This document shows, piece by piece, positions 1,893-60,920 of a stretch of DNA of 64,000 nucleotides. How positions within the stretch are numbered: position 1 is the stretch's first letter; the number at the start of each line of letters is the position of its first letter. The stretch is taken from assembly GCF_045037415.1 (NCBI RefSeq), contig NZ_CP173438.1. One strand, given 5' to 3'. The position numbers and the translations under genes are program-made. Under the pieces are notes generated by a model. It did no database searches. It was not told where the DNA came from and saw only the letters and a list, made by a program, of their open reading frames with translations. Source of the DNA: Escherichia coli (GTDB lineage Bacteria; Pseudomonadota; Gammaproteobacteria; Enterobacterales; Enterobacteriaceae).

Positions 1893-4800
1893 TTACTCGT
1901 TATCAGAACCGCCCAGACCTGCGTTCAGCAGTTCTGCCAGGCTGGCAGATGCGTCTTCTGCAGTCACCTGCGGTGCAGCCGGAGCTTCACCCGCAGCACG
2001 GCGACGCATACGATCCTGGTGGTACGCGTAACCGGTACCTGCCGGGATCAGACGACCCACGATAACGTTCTCTTTCAGGCCGCGCAGTTCGTCGCGTTTG
2101 CCCGCAACGGCTGCTTCGGTCAGCACGCGAGTGGTCTCCTGGAACGATGCCGCGGAGATGAAGGACTCGGTTGCCAGAGACGCTTTGGTAATACCCAGCA
2201 GATCGCGGGAGTAAGTTGCACCCACTTTACCGTTCGCTTCCAGTTCGCGGTTTGCGATCTTGACGCGAGAGTATTCAACCTGTTCACCTTCCAGGAAGTC
2301 GGAGCTGCCCGCGTTAACGATGGTAGCTTTACGCAGCATCTGACGAACGATAACTTCGATGTGTTTATCGTTAATCTTAACGCCCTGCAGACGGTATACG
2401 TCCTGTACTTCGTTAACGATGTAACGAGTCACAGCATGAACACCACGCAGACGCAGAATGTCGTGCGGCGCTTCCGGACCGTCGGAAATTACGTCACCAC
2501 GTTCTACACGTTCACCTTCGAACACGTTGAGCTGACGCCATTTCGGAATCATCTCTTCGTACGGATCGCTACCGTCTACCGGGGTGATAACCAGACGACG
2601 TTTACCTTTGGTTTCTTTACCGAAGGAAACGATACCGCTGATTTCAGCCAGGATTGCCGGCTCTTTCGGACGACGTGCTTCGAACAGGTCCGCAACGCGC
2701 GGCAGACCACCGGTGATGTCCTTGGTACCGCCGGATTCCTGCGGAATACGCGCCAGGGTGTCACCAGAGCTGATCTGTACGCCATCTTCCAGCTGAACAA
2801 TCGCTTTACCCGGCAGGAAGTACTGCGCAGGCATATCGGTACCCGGGATCAGAACGTCGTTACCCTGAGCATCAACGATTTTCAGTGCCGGACGCAGATC
2901 TTTACCACCTGCGGTACGTTCTGCGGAATCCAGAACCACCAGCGAAGACAGACCGGTCAATTCGTCGGTCTGACGAGTAATGGTCTGGCCGTCGATCATG
3001 TCAGTAAAGCGTACAAAACCGCTTACTTCGGTGATAACCGGCATGGTGTGCGGGTCCCAGTTTGCAACGGTTTCGCCGCCAGCAACCTGTTCGCCATCGC
3101 CTTTCGCCAGTACCGCACCGTAAGGTACTTTGTAGCTTTCTTTGGTACGACCGAATTCGTCGATCAGTTTCAGTTCGGTGTTACGGGAAGTGATAACCAG
3201 TTTACCGCTGGAGTTCACAACCGACTTCACGTTGCTGAGCTTGATGCTACCTTTGTTTTTCACCTGGATGCTGGATTCAGCAGCCGCACGAGATGCCGCA
3301 CCACCGATGTGGAACGTACGCATGGTCAGCTGTGTACCCGGTTCACCGATGGACTGTGCCGCGATAACACCGATTGCTTCACCTTTATTGATGATGTGGC
3401 CACGCGCCAGGTCACGACCGTAGCAGTGCGCACATACACCAAAGTCGGTGTCACAAGATACAACAGAACGTACTTTAACCGCGTCGACAGAGTTCTCTTC
3501 CAGCAGGTCACACCACTGTTCGTGCAGCAGCGTGTTGCGCGGAACGAGGATATCAGCAGTACCCGGCTTCAGAACGTCTTCAGCAGTTACACGACCCAAT
3601 ACGCGATCGCGCAGCGGCTCTTTAACGTCACCACCCTCGATAACCGGAGTCATCATGATACCTTCATGGGTACCACAATCGTCTTCGGTAACCACCAGGT
3701 CCTGCGCCACGTCAACCAGACGACGAGTCAGGTAACCGGAGTTCGCCGTTTTCAGTGCGGTATCCGCCAGACCTTTACGAGCACCGTGGGTGGAGATGAA
3801 GTACTGGAGTACGTTCAGACCTTCACGGAAGTTCGCGGTGATTGGCGTTTCGATGATGGAGCCATCCGGCTTCGCCATCAGACCACGCATACCAGCAAGC
3901 TGACGAATCTGTGCCGCAGAACCACGCGCACCGGAGTCGGCCATCATGTAGATGCTGTTGAAGGAAACCTGCTTCTCTTCCTGACCGTCACGGTTAATAA
4001 CGGTTTCAGTTTGCAGGTTATCCATCATCGCTTTGGATACACGATCGTTCGCCGCAGCCCAGATATCGATAACTTTGTTGTAGCGTTCGCCCGCAGTTAC
4101 CAGACCAGACTGGAACTGCTCCTGAATTTCAGCAACTTCTGCTTCTGCCTCGGAGATGATTTCGTGTTTCTTCTCCGGGATGACCATGTCATCGATACCA
4201 ACAGATGCACCAGAACGCGCTGCATATGCAAAGCCGGTATACATGATCTGGTCCGCAAAAATAACGGTCGGTTTCAGACCGAGAATGCGGTAGCAGGTGT
4301 TCAGCATTTTGGAGATTGCTTTTTTACCCAGCGCCTGGTTGACGATGGTGTAAGGCAGACCTTTCGGTACAATCATCCACAGAATGGCACGGCCAACAGT
4401 CGTGTCTTTCAGGCTGGTTTTCGCCACTAATTCACCGTTAGCATCTTTTTCATACTCGGTGATACGCACTTTAACGCGCGCATGCAGAGAAGCCAGACCA
4501 GAGCGATACAGACGTTCTGCTTCTTTCGGGCCAGTCAGCACCATGCCTTCGCCTTTGGCGTTAACACAGTCGCGGGTCATGTAGTACAGACCCAGTACAA
4601 CGTCCTGAGACGGAACGATGATTGGTTCGCCGTTCGCCGGGGACAGGATGTTGTTGGTAGACATCATCAGCGCACGCGCTTCCAGCTGGGCTTCCAGCGT
4701 CAGCGGTACGTGAACGGCCATCTGGTCACCATCGAAGTCGGCGTTATATGCCGCACAAACCAGCGGGTGCAGCTGGATAGCTTTACCTTCGATCAGTACC

Positions 4801-6192: not shown

Positions 6193-9100
6193 TTACTCGT
6201 CTTCCAGTTCGATGTTGATACCCAGCGAACGAATCTCTTTCAACAATACGTTGAAGGATTCTGGCATGCCCGGCTCCATCTGATGGTTGCCGTCCACGAT
6301 GTTTTTATACATCTTAGTACGACCGTTCACGTCATCAGACTTAACGGTGAGCATTTCCTGCAGGGTGTATGCTGCGCCGTATGCTTCCAGCGCCCACACT
6401 TCCATCTCCCCGAAACGCTGACCACCGAACTGTGCCTTACCACCCAGCGGCTGCTGAGTAACCAGGCTGTAAGAACCGGTGGAACGCGCGTGCATCTTGT
6501 CGTCGACCAGGTGGTTCAGTTTCAGCATGTACATGTAACCAACGGTTACCGGACGTTCGAACTGTTCACCAGTGCGACCGTCGTACAGGCGGATCTGACC
6601 AGAAGTCGGCAGGTCGCCAAGTTTCAGCAGCTCTTTAATTTCTGCTTCTTTCGCACCGTCGAAGACCGGCGTTGCGATTGGCATACCTTTGCGCAGGTTT
6701 TCAGCCAGACGCATAACTTCTTCATCGCTGAAGGTACTCAGGTCAACTTTCTGACGAACATCAGCGCCCAGATCGTACGCACGCTGGATGAATTCGCGCA
6801 GTTTCGCGACTTCTTGCTGCTGTTTCAGCATGGCGTTGATCTTGTCGCCGATACCTTTCGCAGCCATACCCAGGTGGGTTTCGAGGATCTGACCAATGTT
6901 CATACGAGACGGTACGCCCAGCGGGTTCAGTACGATGTCTACCGGAGTACCGTTTTCATCGTAAGGCATATCTTCGATCGGGTTGATCTTAGAAATTACA
7001 CCCTTGTTACCATGACGGCCTGCCATCTTGTCACCAGGCTGGATACGGCGTTTAACCGCCAGATATACCTTAACAATCTTCAGCACGCCCGGTGCCAGAT
7101 CGTCGCCCTGGGTGATTTTGCGGCGTTTCGCTTCGAGTTTCTTCTCGAACTCGTGTTTCAGTTCGTCATACTGCTCAGCCAGCTGTTCCAGCTGATTTTG
7201 TTTCTCTTCGTCGGTCAGGCCCAGCTCCAGCCAGCGATCGCGCGGCAGTTTGTCGAGCTTCTCAGCTTCAACGCCACCGGCTACCAGCACAGCACGGATA
7301 CGGCTGAACAGACCTGCTTCGAGGATCTGCAGTTCTTCAGACAGGTCTTTCTTCGCCTGTTTGAGCTGCATTTCTTCGATTTCCAGCGCACGTTTATCTT
7401 TTTCTACGCCATCGCGAGTAAAGACCTGAACGTCGATAACCGTACCGGATACACCGTTTGGTACGCGCAGAGAAGAGTCTTTAACGTCAGACGCTTTCTC
7501 ACCGAAGATCGCACGCAGCAGTTTTTCTTCTGGGGTCAGCTGAGTTTCACCTTTCGGCGTTACCTTACCAACCAGAATGTCGCCACCGGTCACTTCCGCA
7601 CCAATGTAAACGATACCGGATTCATCCAGTTTGGAGAGCGCAGCTTCACCCACGTTCGGGATGTCAGCGGTGATCTCTTCCGGCCCCAGCTTGGTATCAC
7701 GGGACACACACGCCAGTTCCTGAATATGGATGGTGGTGAAACGGTCTTCCTGAACAACACGCTCGGATACGAGGATGGAGTCTTCGAAGTTGTAACCATT
7801 CCACGGCATGAACGCTACGCGCATGTTCTGACCAAGCGCCAGTTCACCGAGGTCGGTGGACGGACCGTCTGCCAGCACGTCGCCACGTTCTACCGGTTCA
7901 CCCAGAGACACACACGGCATCTGGTTGATACAGGTGTTCTGGTTAGAACGGGTGTACTTGGTCAGGTTGTAGATGTCGATACCTGCTTCACCCGGATACA
8001 TCTCGTCTTCGTTAACTTTGATAACGATACGGGAAGCATCCACGTACTGAACGACACCACCACGTTTAGCAACCGCAGTTACACCAGAGTCAACGGCAAC
8101 AGCACGTTCCATACCCGTACCAACCAGCGGCTTATCAGCACGCAGAGTCGGAACGGCCTGACGTTGCATGTTCGCACCCATCAATGCACGGTTGGCGTCA
8201 TCGTGTTCCAGGAACGGGATCAGGGACGCACCGACGGATACCACCTGCTGGGTGGATACGTCCATGTAGTCAACCTGGTCGCGGCTGAACAAGCTGGATT
8301 CGCCTTTGCTACGGCAAGTTACCAGGTCTTCTACGAAGTGGCCTTCTTCATCCAGGTTGGAGTTCGCCTGGGCGATAACGTAGTTGCCTTCTTCGATAGC
8401 AGACAGATAGTGAATTTCGTCAGTTACAACACCGTCGGTCACTTTACGATACGGAGTCTCAAGGAAGCCGTATTCGTTAGTCTGTGCGTACACGGACAGG
8501 GAGTTGATCAGACCGATGTTCGGACCTTCAGGGGTTTCGATTGGACATACGCGACCGTAGTGAGTCGGGTGTACGTCTCGAACTTCGAAGCCTGCACGTT
8601 CACGGGTCAGACCGCCTGGGCCGAGTGCCGAGATACGACGTTTGTGCGTAATCTCAGACAGCGGGTTGTTCTGGTCCATAAACTGAGACAGCTGGCTGGA
8701 ACCGAAGAACTCTTTCACTGCTGCGGAAATCGGCTTGGCGTTGATCATATCCTGAGGCATCAGGGTATCCAGATCGCCCAGAGACAGACGCTCTTTCACC
8801 GCACGCTCTACACGTACCAGGCCAACGCGGAACTGGTTTTCCGCCATTTCGCCAACAGAACGGATACGACGGTTGCCGAGGTGGTCGATATCATCGACTT
8901 CGCCTTTACCGTTACGGATATCGATGAGCTTTTTCATAACATCAATGATGTCGTCTTTGCTCAGGATACCGGAACCTTCGATTTCTTCGCGCAGCAGAGA
9001 ACGGTTGAACTTCATACGACCAACCGCAGACAGGTCATAGCGGTCTTCGGAGAAGAACAGGTTCTCAAACAGGCTTTCAGCTGCTTCACGAGTCGGCGGC

Positions 9101-29056: not shown

Positions 29057-29416
29057 TTACTCAGCAACGTCCTGCTTACGGTTACGCATCTTCGCGCCAA
29101 TCCAGAACACCATAATGACGGACAGTACTGCCGGGAAGAAGTTGGAACCGATATCCGGATATTCCGCACGAACTACCGTGCTGTACAGCAGTACGCCGAG
29201 AATAAAACAAGCAGCTGCCAGACCCGGCAAGCCTACCGGCATAGTGCGATTAAGATAACGTTGATGCAGGCAGTAAACTGTCAACACCAGGGAAATAATC
29301 GGGAATACAGAAAATGGTACAATGGAGCTAAACAGCGCTGCGAAAGTACCATTAATCGATAAGCCAGCCACTAGCGCCAGCAGCAGCGTACCTCTATCTT
29401 GATTTGCTTGTTTCAT
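29057..29416 (-). CDS. yijD: Inner-membrane protein YijD
   Basis: 119 aa, hydrophobic; immediately downstream of fabR. Confidence 0.9.
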
Positions 29417-30063
29417 TACTCGTCCTTCACATTTCCCGGAATAATTGCGGTTTTCTCTTGTTCACGGCGATACCAGTAATAAGCCCCTTTCGAAATCATT
29501 CGCAGCTGCAGTACCAGTCGCTCTTCTAATTGCCGACGTTGCTCGACGCCGACATCCAACGCCTCGGCCCCCGCACTGAAGACAATCGTCACCATTGCTT
29601 CGGCTTGCGCTTCAGTAAACGCACGCGGCATATGGTTTTCGAGTTCCAGATAGTCCGCAAGTTCCGCAATGAAGTGCTGAATTTCACGCGCAACGGCGGC
29701 ACGAAACGCAGCGGAGGTGCCGGAGCGTTCCCGCAATAATAACCGGAAGGCGTTAGGATTATTACCGATGAACTCCATAAATGTGGAGACCGAGGTGCGG
29801 ATCACACTCCCGCCTTTGGCGATACGCTGACGCGCCTGACGCATGAGTTGGCGTAGCATTAAACCGCTCTCATCAACCATGGTCAGACCCAGTTCGTCTA
29901 CGTCGCGGAAATGCCGATAAAAAGAGGTGGGAGCAATGCCTGCTTCTCGTGCCACTTCACGCAAACTCAGGCTGGCGAAGCTGCGTTCAGCACTTAATTG
30001 GCTAAATGCGGCTTCCACCAGCGAACGGCGGGTTTTTTCTTTTTGTTGCGCTCTTACGCCCAT
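29416..30063 (-). CDS. fabR: TetR-family repressor of unsaturated fatty-acid biosynthesis
   Basis: Track ORF is 247 aa; trimmed to [10 protein letters not shown] (215 aa); the start is ambiguous and longer versions begin at 30120 or 30159. Confidence 0.85.
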
Positions 30064-30169
30064 CACGATGTCTGAATCCTTGCCAAAAGTACTGCTGGCA
30101 CTATACCAGAGAATGAACATACTGGATTGCTCCAGTGTTGTGAATGAACGGTAACGCAATAAAACATAT

Positions 30170-31486
30170 TTACTGCAATTCTTTGGCCGGTTCTTTTACG
30201 TACAACAACGCCAGCATCGACAGCAACGTGCCTCCACCCAGATACCACGCCGGAGCCGTCAGACTATCCAGCAACACGATGGATTGCGTAGCGAAATATT
30301 GAGCAAAACCGCCAAAGATTGCCACACCAATGCTATAAACCAGCGCAAAACCCAATGCCCGAATCCGTTTCGGCAACAGTTCAGAGATCAACAACATCAC
30401 TGGCACACCGCCAAGCGTGGTAAAGCTGACCATCACGAAAACCACCGTCAGCAACATGCCAGGGCTTGGGTAATTCACCAACAGCCAGAATGACGGCCAG
30501 CTACAGAGAAGCACCATCACACGGGAGATTAAAATCAGCTTTTTACGCCCGACCGAATCGCACAACATCCCCACAAGCAGCGCACCCACAAACGTAACAA
30601 CGCCCGCCAGTAACATCGCTGCATGAGAATAATGTTGAGGCATCGCCAGATACTTCGCCGCCCAGGTGCCGTAATAAAAGAGGGAGATATAGGTTGCGAC
30701 CGTGCTACCAATAGCGAGTAAAACGCCATTAACGATAGTCGCCTTATGTTGCAGGAGCAGAGAAAACGCGCTTTCGCTGGTAGCAGCTTTTTTATTGCGC
30801 ACAGGCTCAGGTACGTCATTTTCCAGGCTCAGACGCAACCAGCAACCGATAGGTGCTAATAACACACCAATAAAAAACGGCACACGCCAGCCCCATTCTG
30901 CCATTACGGTTTCTGAACCTGTGGCGAACGGTAGCCATGCGCTTAAACCTAAAGCGACAACACCGCCAAAAGTTGTTGCCAGGCCTTGAGTCGCCAGTGA
31001 CCAACTGCTGTAAAAGCCACGACGATTTGCCGGAGCTGACTCCACCAGTAGCGACATTGAAGCCCCGACTTCACCACCTGCCGCAACGCCCTGAATCAAA
31101 CGCGCCAGCACCAGCGTTGCGGTTCCCCAATAGCCCGCCGTTTCATACGTCGGTGCGATGCCGATCATCAGCGTACCGAGGCTCATCAGAGCAATAGTGA
31201 ACACCATCGCCGGTTTACGCCCGAAGCGATCGGCCCAGGCACCAACGATAATCCCACCGAGCGGACGCATAAAAAAGCTCACACCAAACGTTGCAAATGC
31301 CAGTAACAGCGCGACGTTATGATCGGCACTGGGTGGGAAGAAAAGCGTACTGATATAGACCACAAAAAAGTTGTAAACGCCAAAATCAAAAAATTCGAGC
31401 GCATTGCCAAACGCCGAGGCAAAGATCACCCGCCTGCCGCTGGGCTTTTTCTTCACACTCACGGTTTCATTTACGATCGCCGTCAT
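30170..31486 (-). CDS. MFS transporter, metabolite:H+ symporter-like
   Basis: 438 aa, multi-spanning hydrophobic profile; N-terminal [12 protein letters not shown] and loop GWADRFGRK motifs typical of MFS; not present at this position in K-12 as I recall it. Confidence 0.8.
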
Positions 31487-31528
31487 TCCATGTTCCTTGC
31501 CAAAAAGTGTTGTTGTGTGTTGTTTTAT

Positions 31529-32695
31529 TTATTGCAGCCAGGCTTCAACCAGTGCGCCCCAGTAGCTGCTTGCCGGGACCAGGCTTGCATCGTTAAAGTC
31601 GTAACCGGGGTTATGCACCATGCAGGAACCTTCCCCGACATCGCCATTACCGAATAACAGGAAACCGCCTTTGGGTTGGGCCTCCAGCATGAAAGAGAAA
31701 TCTTCACTGCCCATCAGGGGTTTGATGCCAAACTCAGCCCGATCTTCACCAAATGTTTTGCACGCCACCTGCCAGGCGAAGCGCGCCATCTCCTCGTCAT
31801 TTACTAATACCGGTGTACCGTTAACATGCGTAACCTCAGCCGTAGCGCCAAAGCTGGCAGCCTGGGTTTGTGCAAGAGCAGGAATACGGGTCAGAAGAAG
31901 TTGTCGGGTATCGCGGCTAAGAGAGCGGACACTGATTTTCATCTCAGCACTGTCAGGAATGACGTTAGCCGCCTCACCCGCAACAATGCTGCCGACGGTA
32001 ATTACCGCCGCTTCCAGCGGATCGACATTGCGCGACACAATGCTTTGTAATGCGGTGGTGATATGTGCGGCAACCAGCACTGGATCGATGGCTTTGTGCG
32101 GGATCGCACCGTGTCCGCCACAACCACGAACCGTAATATGGAACTGATCCATTGACGCCATCAGCGCCCCAGGCTGGAAGAAAAACTTGCCGACCGGCAA
32201 ACCCGGCATGTTGTGCATCCCGAAAATGACATCGCAGGGGAAACGATCAAAAAGCCCCTCTTTAACCATGATCTCACCGCCGTTAATCATCTCTTCCGCT
32301 GGCTGGAAGATAAGGCGTAACGTGCCGTTAAAACGGCGGGTTTCGGCAAAATAACGCGCGGCCCCCAGCAGTATGGTGGTATGCCCGTCATGCCCGCAGG
32401 CGTGCATTAAACCAGGATGTTTACTGGCCCAGGGCTTGCCACTATTTTCATAAATCGGCAACGCATCCATATCCGCCCGCAGGCCAATACTTTTCTCTCC
32501 GTCGCCCACTTTTAACGTGGCTACCACGCCGGTTGTCGCCAGCCCTTGCTCAACCTCATAGCCCCACTGGCGCAGCTTTTCCGCAACCAAAGCACTGGTT
32601 TTAAATTCTTGTAATCCCAGCTCCGGGTTTTCGTGGATCTGATGGCGGATCTCGCGAAGTTCTTCCTCAAACCCACGAATATAGTGTTCGATCAT
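31529..32695 (-). CDS. M20D-family amidohydrolase (hippurate hydrolase / N-acyl-amino-acid amidohydrolase-like)
   Basis: 388 aa; metal-binding ACGHDGH motif; 42-bp gap to the downstream MFS gene suggests a two-gene operon. Confidence 0.8.
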   Translation of the reverse strand: MIEHYIRGFEEELREIRHQIHENPELGLQEFKTSALVAEKLRQWGYEVEQGLATTGVVATLKVGDGEKSIGLRADMDALPIYENSGKPWASKHPGLMHACGHDGHTTILLGAARYFAETRRFNGTLRLIFQPAEEMINGGEIMVKEGLFDRFPCDVIFGMHNMPGLPVGKFFFQPGALMASMDQFHITVRGCGGHGAIPHKAIDPVLVAAHITTALQSIVSRNVDPLEAAVITVGSIVAGEAANVIPDSAEMKISVRSLSRDTRQLLLTRIPALAQTQAASFGATAEVTHVNGTPVLVNDEEMARFAWQVACKTFGEDRAEFGIKPLMGSEDFSFMLEAQPKGGFLLFGNGDVGEGSCMVHNPGYDFNDASLVPASSYWGALVEAWLQ

Positions 32696-33024
32696 CGGCT
32701 ATTCCTTTATTCACTTATAAACAGGCTAATTAACGGATTTTATTGATGGTATAAATACAAATAACCCATCAATATAAAATATTTATACATTTGTTTTATA
32801 AGAAGATTTCATAAAGACAATAACAAAAAAGCACGCTTCGGCAAGATAAAACTATCAGCCATAAGAAAAAGCGATTAATAGTGAATAAATAAAATAAGAA
32901 GGAGGAAGACAAAGCAAAGGCCGCTCACGATATAGCCAGATAAATGACGGGGATCAATTGGCTTACCCGCGATAAAATGTTACCATTCTGTTGCTTTTAT
33001 GTATAAGAACAGGTAAGCCCTACC

Positions 33025-34425
33025 ATGCCACATTCCTACGATTACGATGCCATAGTAATAGGTTCCGGCCCCGGCGGCGAAGGCGCTGCGATGGGCCTGG
33101 TTAAGCAAGGTGCGCGCGTCGCAGTTATCGAGCGTTATCAAAATGTTGGCGGCGGTTGCACCCACTGGGGCACCATCCCGTCGAAAGCTCTCCGTCACGC
33201 CGTCAGCCGCATTATAGAATTCAATCAAAACCCACTATACAGCGACCATTCCCGACTGCTCCGCTCTTCTTTTGCCGATATCCTTAACCATGCCGATAAC
33301 GTGATTAATCAACAAACGCGCATGCGTCAGGGATTTTACGAACGTAATCACTGTGAAATATTGCAGGGGAACGCTCGCTTTGTTGATGAGCATACGTTGG
33401 CGCTGGATTGCCCGGACGGCAGCGTCGAAACACTAACTGCTGAAAAATTTGTTATTGCCTGCGGTTCTCGTCCATATCATCCAACAGATGTTGATTTCAC
33501 CCATCCACGCATTTATGACAGCGACTCAATTCTTAGCATGCACCACGAACCGCGCCATGTACTTATTTACGGTGCTGGAGTGATCGGCTGTGAATATGCG
33601 TCGATCTTCCGCGGTATGGATGTAAAAGTGGATCTGATCAACACCCGCGATCGCCTGCTGGCATTTCTCGATCAAGAGATGTCAGATTCTCTCTCCTATC
33701 ACTTCTGGAACAGTGGCGTAGTGATTCGTCACAACGAAGAGTACGAGAAGATCGAAGGCTGTGATGACGGTGTGATCATGCATCTGAAGTCGGGTAAAAA
33801 ACTGAAAGCTGACTGTCTGCTCTATGCCAACGGTCGCACCGGTAATACCGATTCGCTGGCGTTACAGAACATTGGGCTGGAAACTGACAGTCGCGGACAG
33901 CTGAAGGTCAACAGCATGTATCAGACCGCACAGCCGCACGTTTACGCGGTGGGCGACGTGATTGGTTATCCGAGCCTGGCGTCGGCAGCCTATGACCAGG
34001 GGCGCATTGCCGCGCAGGCGCTGGTGAAAGGTGAAGCCACCGCACATCTGATTGAAGATATCCCTACCGGCATTTACACCATCCCGGAAATCAGCTCTGT
34101 AGGCAAAACCGAACAGCAGCTGACCGCGATGAAAGTGCCATATGAAGTAGGCCGCGCCCAGTTTAAACATCTGGCACGTGCACAAATCGTCGGCATGAAC
34201 GTGGGCACGCTGAAAATTTTGTTCCATCGGGAAACAAAAGAGATTCTGGGTATTCACTGCTTTGGCGAGCGCGCTGCCGAAATTATTCATATCGGTCAGG
34301 CGATTATGGAACAGAAAGGTGGCGGCAACACTATTGAGTACTTCGTCAACACCACCTTTAACTACCCGACGATGGCGGAAGCCTATCGGGTAGCTGCGCT
34401 AAATGGCTTAAACCGCCTGTTTTAA
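33025..34425 (+). CDS. sthA: Soluble pyridine nucleotide transhydrogenase
   Basis: 466 aa; FAD-binding GSGPGG; 3' end overlaps oxyR convergently. Confidence 0.95.
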
Positions 34426-57517: not shown

Positions 57518-59830
<2,313 letters not shown>

Positions 59831-60026
59831 CGTAATTAAGACTTTTTGATTATGTCCGATTTAGGACAAATGCTTTATAAAAAAGGGTTTTAGATTTGTA
59901 TCCTTCAAGTAATGAGGGAGAAAACAAGGCTGATAACCTTATTTTCCCGCCCTCATTTCGAGGCAGCATTTTGTGCTCTGTTTAAAATTTGTGAACACTG
60001 TGTGATTTTCACAAAAGGCACAATAC

Positions 60027-60920
<894 letters not shown>

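Follow-up and report, generated by a model that had tools for sequence, protein, structure and literature searches.

The spacer between an M20-family aminoacylase gene and sthA in Escherichia coli is probably a pair of independent control regions lying back to back, with the sthA promoter on one side and the upstream region of an M20-MFS operon on the other. This is the best overall explanation for a 329-bp sequence (positions 32696-33024; 32.8% G+C) within the 64-kb stretch of DNA that we analyzed (hereafter, the window). To its left is a minus-strand gene (31529-32695) that both NCBIfam and Pfam assign to the M20 family of amidohydrolases/aminoacylases, followed by the second gene of the module, which encodes an MFS metabolite/H+ symporter (30170-31486, minus strand). 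To its right is sthA (33025-34425, plus strand), encoding the soluble pyridine nucleotide transhydrogenase. Beyond the MFS gene lie fabR, yijD, and trmA, and beyond sthA lie oxyR and argH. An earlier reading of this DNA, made from the letters alone (the sequence-only reading), had proposed that divergent control regions share the spacer. Our analysis agrees, assigning 32907-33024 to the sthA promoter and 32696-32906 to the upstream region of the M20-MFS pair.

Composition of the spacer and the sthA promoter

The spacer is the lowest-G+C 329-bp stretch of the entire window, for which the mean is 51.9%; just 0.08% of all 329-bp stretches have a G+C content of 33% or less. The sequence-only reading had pointed to three features here: a sequence far more AT-rich than its surroundings, an inverted repeat, and a short palindrome. 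All three are present, and the AT-richness is far beyond chance, being the sole one of the three to exceed it. G+C content is also uneven across the spacer, at 27.0% over the 211 bp nearest the M20 gene (32696-32906) and 43.2% over the 118 bp nearest sthA (32907-33024). None of the small open reading frames in the spacer (20 to 38 amino acids) has a credible start context. One other low-G+C intergenic stretch was found in the window (~59738-60026; less than 36% in 329-bp windows), and it separates two minus-strand open reading frames at 57518-59737 and 60027-60917.

Alignment of a K-12-type reference (JME65) to the window divides the spacer in two. The reference aligns at 29280-30204 (98.4% identity) and again at 32907-33206 (99.3% identity), and the 2,702 bp in between (30205-32906) are replaced in K-12-type genomes by an unrelated 74 bp. 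Judged from this alignment, the boundary between the ancestral sthA promoter and module DNA falls at 32906/32907. The 118 bp on the sthA side (plus strand) are 99% identical to the K-12-type sequence and, because K-12-type DNA aligns there, are common to nearly all E. coli; the sthA-proximal part of our query was matched in 5,425 of 5,426 complete genomes. The 211 bp on the other side, which lie upstream of the minus-strand operon, are missing from K-12-type genomes. Upstream of position −107 relative to the sthA start, the two arrangements differ entirely: K-12 has 74 bp and then the fabR promoter region, whereas the window has 211 bp at 27% G+C and then a divergent gene. With only 118 of its 329 bp K-12-like, the spacer as a whole is not an unchanged K-12 sthA promoter. 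The alignment to K-12 that the sequence-only reading had suggested therefore recovers the original sthA promoter in those 118 bp, but it assigns the 211 bp that hold the repeat and the palindrome to the module.

The control elements of sthA are the unchanged K-12 ones. In K-12, ChIP and motif analysis have placed an ArcA site at sthA that extends from −36 to −5 relative to the transcription start and consists of three direct repeats (PMC3798270 supplement, Park et al. 2013). ArcA-dependent repression was seen in the same organism, with sthA de-repressed 18-fold in an arcA mutant (PMC3798270), and ArcA repression of sthA is also reported by Federowicz et al. 2014 (PMC3974632). An exact copy of this 32-mer, with the three direct repeats ATGTTACCATTCTGTTGCTTTTATGTATAAGA, is at 32977-33008 (plus strand). 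It occurs once in the window, and its end is 17 bp from the ATG (33025), the same distance as in K-12. Because the site corresponds to −36 to −5 in the published coordinates, sthA transcription would start near 33013, leaving a 12-nt leader. Promoter scoring together with the position of the ArcA site places the core promoter at 32980-33013 (plus strand), comprising a −35 element (TTACCA, 32980-32985), a 16-bp spacer, and a −10 element (TATAAG, 33002-33007). The three direct repeats of the ArcA operator extend over both elements, and ArcA bound there would repress sthA. Over 70 bp separate all of these control elements from the AT-rich block.

It is hardly credible that all 329 bp belong to the sthA promoter, with the AT-rich part serving as an upstream element or activator platform for this gene. 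An AT-rich stretch ahead of a promoter can stimulate transcription, and the spacer is physically common to both genes, but the sthA start and the ArcA site are within the last 50 bp, and that start is 107 bp downstream of the AT-rich part. Furthermore, the AT-rich part is replaced by unrelated DNA in 3,900 of 5,426 genomes (72%) with a fully functional sthA promoter, and K-12, in which this promoter was mapped, has the replaced sequence.

Distribution and ancestry of the M20-MFS module

Among the 5,426 complete E. coli genomes, 1,507 carry the AT-rich 211 bp, almost always as a single copy and at 95 to 100% identity (four genomes fall between 90 and 95%). The 74-bp K-12-type allele, which is single-copy, accounts for the 3,900 genomes given above, and the two alleles are effectively exclusive. 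Module carriers include O157:H7, O145, O83:H1, and O18:H1 strains. The AT-rich 211 bp occurs only in genomes that have the M20-MFS pair, and these include E. albertii, in which it is 96.7% identical and the order of genes is the same as in the window (sthA, M20, MFS, fabR, yijD, trmA). Across 100,044 species-representative genomes, E. albertii provides the only close relative of the M20 protein outside E. coli (97% amino acid identity). The next-best match, from Silvimonas, is 63% identical, and it is followed by matches from Burkholderiales, Pseudomonas, and Rhizobiales. The sthA-fabR spacer polymorphism is not discussed in any of the papers that we found.

The left edge of the replaced segment (30204) interrupts the coding sequence of the MFS gene (codon 428/429 of 438), such that K-12-type genomes keep the final 10 codons of the gene plus its stop codon (30170-30204). 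This retained tail aligns in nine distant homologs of 436 to 438 residues, all of which have E432 and conform locally to (K/R/D)-E-(P/T)-A; the K-E-(P/T)-A motif is among the codons kept. Since distant homologs align through it, the tail is native MFS coding sequence rather than host DNA read by accident, and K-12-type genomes carry an MFS stump. The MFS gene is 88.5% identical between the window and E. albertii, a species-level divergence like that of its neighbors. The kept tail, together with this divergence and the presence of the module at the same site in E. albertii, indicates that the K-12 state is probably a derived one that arose by deletion, and that the module is ancestral in Escherichia. 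The ancestor common to E. coli and E. albertii would already have carried the module here, and its deletion would have followed in K-12-type lineages. The sequence-only reading had spoken of an inserted module; the polarity is thus reversed.

We also considered, and rejected, a genomic island brought in by site-specific or transpositional recombination. No direct or inverted repeats of at least 8 bp were found at the two module junctions, no mobility genes were found in the module, and its left edge is inside the MFS frame. Its genes have a host-like G+C content (52 to 54%), with no compositional anomaly. The 74-bp filler of K-12-type genomes (2927-3000 of the JME65 locus) starts with a small hairpin-like sequence, GCGGAAACCTGCCGC, and nothing related to it was detected in the module: neither local nor semi-global alignments of the filler to the module or the AT-rich spacer were significant against shuffles. 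A junction similarity in the O157-type allele (GGG...CAGAC), seen by eye, could not be substantiated. Note that a second presence/absence polymorphism occurs a few kilobases away in some module-bearing strains. At the equivalent of ~35590, M1/5 (6478-7501 of its locus) and ZJ3920 (6333-7162 of its locus) have an MFS transporter annotated beside oxyR, in the position that argH occupies in the window.

The spacer of the window shares 96.7% identity with that of E. albertii, compared with 74 to 88% for third codon positions of neighboring genes and 88 to 90% for other spacers of the locus. Counted per 100 bp, it has 0 to 5 differences, against 8 to 14 in the adjoining coding DNA. Within E. coli, the AT-rich part differs between the window and O157:H7 at 11 of 211 positions (94.8% identity), and third positions are 90% identical in the M20 gene and 80% identical in the MFS gene. 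These comparisons suggest that the entire spacer is under moderate functional constraint, and its conservation could reflect selection on specific sites, possibly including the repeat. Note that near-identical recombination tracts (31400-32199) are present in the locus; low divergence is therefore not clean evidence of constraint, and part of the conservation signal may stem from recent exchange.

Divergence from E. albertii is mosaic at 31400-32199 and 32600-32799, with segments of 0 to 6 differences per 100 bp next to segments of 8 to 20, a pattern that indicates likely interspecies recombination tracts within the module. The MFS gene of the window is 91.6% identical to that of O157:H7 at the nucleotide level, whereas fabR, sthA, and oxyR are 98 to 99% identical. 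This divergence within E. coli is nearly as great as that from E. albertii and suggests that the alleles are old or were imported from other Escherichia lineages. Adjacent substitutions clustered at 32891-32895 separate two spacer haplotypes: the window, M1/5, and E. albertii read AAAAT, and O157:H7 and GPT24-02 read GGGTT. The cluster immediately precedes an AAGGAGG run, which no start codon follows.

The inverted repeat and the palindrome

The inverted repeat was first noted as TTGATGG-N16-CCATCAA (32743-32749 and 32766-32772). It extends to 9 perfect bases per arm, or to 12 with one mismatch, to give TTTTATTGATGG-N16-CCATCAATATAA at 32738-32777, with arms at 32738-32749 and 32766-32777 that are complementary at 11 of 12 positions. 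The same scan returned 20 further inverted repeats in the spacer, one of which also has perfect 9-base arms and interleaves with this repeat. For comparison, we shuffled the region 500 times with dinucleotide content preserved. An inverted repeat of at least 9 perfect bases with a gap of 3 to 40 bp arises in 10.8% of shuffles, one of at least 12 bases with at most one mismatch in 7.2%, and the 7-bp version in 74%. The repeat is within chance expectation. The palindrome AAATATTT (32777-32784) is likewise at chance level: it is the only perfect palindrome of at least 8 bp in the spacer, whereas shuffles contain 2.45 on average and 92% of them have at least one.

The repeat is conserved no better than the remaining spacer. 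Seven spacer positions differ between the window and E. albertii, and one of these (C32766T) is in the repeat arms, amounting to 1 change in 24 arm positions compared with 6 in 187 elsewhere. Position 32766, part of the innermost pair, is also polymorphic within E. coli, being C in the window and GPT24-02 and T in O157:H7 and M1/5, as in E. albertii. A natural disruption of the M20–sthA spacer was observed in E. coli ZJ3920, in which IS1B is inserted in the AT-rich part at the equivalent of ~32745, inside or beside the left repeat arm; this fits the liking of IS1 for AT-rich targets.

The repeat might still be a true operator, at which an unlinked dimeric or tetrameric regulator binds the TATTGATGG arms and controls the M20-MFS pair according to its substrate (an N-acyl amino acid or hippurate-like compound). 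We regard this as unlikely. The repeat is real, with 9 perfect bases in each arm, and its location 43 to 82 bp upstream of the M20 ATG is a usual one for operators; 11 of 12 arm positions are identical in E. albertii, and the arms coincide with −35/−10-like hexamers on the M20 strand, such that a bound protein would occlude RNA polymerase. However, comparable repeats turn up in 7 to 11% of shuffles, the arms have changed at 1 of 24 positions against 6 of 187 elsewhere, and the innermost pair varies among E. coli strains. The half-site centers are 25 bp apart (~2.4 helical turns), which is not an integral number of turns and puts them on different faces of the helix. The module has no regulator gene, and the only regulator between fabR and sthA is fabR itself. 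In addition, the TTGAT...ATCAA repeat was not found upstream of the 11 distant homologous loci that we scanned (six with a divergent open reading frame of LysR size, four of them confirmed as LysR-type). Spacer motifs were also compared by eye with motifs for FNR, CRP, IHF, ArgR, RcsAB, and sigma-54 sites, and none fitted. The sequence-only reading had offered an operator or a nucleoid-protein target. The first of these, a specific operator role for the repeat, finds no backing in its chance-level occurrence, polymorphic pair, ordinary conservation, off-phase centers, and lack of a module regulator, whereas a nucleoid-protein target fits both the composition and a published TosR response (PMC5956150).

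Two candidate promoters were predicted for the M20 gene, both on the minus strand, and we infer the position of the transcription start from them. The best-scoring sigma-70 candidate (32817-32844) comprises TTGCCG, a 16-bp spacer, and TG-n-TATTGT, with a predicted start near 32810. The alternative is formed from the repeat arms (32746-32772), with TTGATG as the −35 element, a 15-bp spacer, and TACCAT as the −10 element; its start would be near 32739. A strict consensus scan of the spacer for promoters and terminators found none. Promoter prediction, another of the checks put forward earlier, returned the TTACCA/TATAAG pair of sthA, which the ArcA site brackets; in a scoring-matrix scan, both M20 candidates scored within the range of shuffled sequence.

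If transcription does begin near 32810, as the best candidate predicts, the repeat would lie inside a 115-nt leader of the M20 transcript. There it might act as RNA, with a hairpin of 9-bp stem modulating mRNA stability or translation. The minus-strand RNA folds at −12.6 kcal/mol (z-score of −2.9 against shuffles), and the C32766T variant still pairs, as G-U on the M20 strand. Even so, we consider such a role decidedly improbable. The promoter prediction on which this leader depends is no better than that for shuffled sequence, and there is no meaningful Rfam match up to an E-value of 10. The hairpin is AU-rich, weak, and more than 40 nt from the ribosome-binding site, and no terminator-like T-run follows the stem. 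Furthermore, the sole arm change yields G-U, and there is thus no covariation.

Most likely, the repeat and AAATATTT are by-products of low-complexity AT-rich DNA, and they would not form a dedicated operator. Their contribution would at most consist of −35/−10-like hexamers or of a weak leader hairpin, and the repeat presumably lacks a function.

TosR response and silencing of the M20-MFS operon

In uropathogenic E. coli CFT073, a putative TosR motif, CTTATAAAACAAATATATAAATATTTTAT, has been reported 78 bp upstream of the ATG of c4924 (PMC5956150 Table S2), which is annotated as a 'putative hippuricase'. The corresponding AT-rich motif instance in the window is at 32774-32802 (minus strand), where it departs from the CFT073 sequence by one mismatch and is equally far from the ATG. 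The motif match and this distance together confirm c4924 as the M20 gene of the window; oxyR of CFT073 is c4922. In the window, the motif takes in the palindrome AAATATTT and borders on the right repeat arm.

The gene yjjQ and the auf, yqi, and yfc fimbrial genes are typical H-NS-silenced loci. Together with these, c4924 is among the five genes most induced by TosR (PMC5956150), its expression rising by log2 6.6, or ~100-fold, when tosR is overexpressed in CFT073 (PMC5956150 Table 1). TosR belongs to the PapB family and is predicted to bind AT-rich DNA and to antagonize silencing by H-NS/Lrp (PMC5956150). An induction of ~100-fold implies a very low basal level of c4924, and we therefore read 32696-32906 as a promoter region that is most likely silenced by nucleoid proteins. 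Note that the effect of TosR on c4924 could be indirect.

The AT-rich upstream DNA would serve as a binding platform for nucleoid-associated silencers (of the H-NS type, possibly Lrp or StpA), which would keep the M20-MFS operon nearly off in laboratory conditions. Competitors for AT-rich DNA, such as the PapB-family protein TosR, would relieve this silencing, and the operon would have no dedicated regulator in Escherichia. Both the composition of the upstream DNA (27% G+C compared with 51.9% for the window) and, from the literature, a low basal expression relieved by a protein that binds AT-rich DNA (PMC5956150) are as expected for silencing, and H-NS-type occupancy is the most likely interpretation of the composition and the TosR overexpression result. 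The high-affinity H-NS nucleation motif, taken as tCGwTwAATT, has only four matches in the spacer, each with two mismatches, and its window-wide counts equal those of shuffles. We found no published H-NS, StpA, or Lrp occupancy and no hns-mutant expression for the M20–sthA locus.

The locus resembles AT-rich promoters of the xenogeneic-silencing type that are silenced by H-NS (tos, pap, and yjjQ-bglJ), in that low G+C is confined to the region upstream of a strain-variable operon, and in that the CFT073 ortholog is induced ~100-fold by TosR and has an AT-rich motif 78 bp upstream (PMC5956150). This likeness comes from composition and the TosR response, and H-NS binding at the M20 locus is a prediction. 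The locus differs from such promoters in the host-like G+C of its operon genes (52 to 54%) and in that the module appears to be old in Escherichia and not recently acquired. The same gene pair is also found in the LysR-regulated M20-MFS operons of Burkholderiales and relatives, with amino acid identities of 50 to 58% for M20 and 36 to 45% for MFS. Among these distant loci, six of nine have a divergent open reading frame of LysR size, and all four that were tested are confirmed as LysR-type. Their upstream regions have 53 to 74% G+C and are without the TTGAT...ATCAA repeat. In contrast, the Escherichia module has no regulator gene, a 27% G+C spacer, and sthA as its divergent neighbor; no remnant of a LysR-type gene was detected in the spacer or the module.

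Two published gene lists touch on the module. The genes c4924-c4926 are listed as a UPEC-associated 'citrate metabolism' gene set (PMC2831201). ECs4893, an 'O157-specific' gene that from its numbering would belong to the module, is 2.1-fold up at entry into stationary phase (PMC2241611). At the other end of the operon, the 103-bp spacer between the MFS gene and fabR (30067-30169), which is common to K-12, contains two weak terminator-like hairpins and a promoter-like site (TTCACA, 17-bp spacer, TATGTT; 30144-30116, minus strand). The M20, MFS, fabR, and yijD genes are codirectional, and read-through from the module into fabR is conceivable.

A further reading would join the two halves of the spacer into a bidirectional switch coupling redox metabolism to the operon. 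Nucleoid-protein filaments starting from 32696-32906 would reach the sthA promoter, at a distance of 74 bp, and the repeat would be the opening site of the M20 promoter, acted on by an unlinked regulator or by supercoiling-driven extrusion. We think it very improbable that all of this holds. If it did, module-bearing lineages (B2, E, and E. albertii) and K-12-type lineages would regulate their soluble transhydrogenase differently.

Taken as two independent control regions, the spacer is an ordinary pair, of which the sthA half is already characterized, and no new mechanism is implied. The exact boundary between the conserved sthA promoter and strain-variable DNA is useful for comparing transhydrogenase regulation and for engineering sthA in strains other than K-12. 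The polarity of the polymorphism is also corrected, with K-12 likely having lost an aminoacylase-transporter pair, rather than pathogenic lineages having gained it. Finally, an uncharacterized operon present in ~28% of complete E. coli genomes is linked to a published TosR response.
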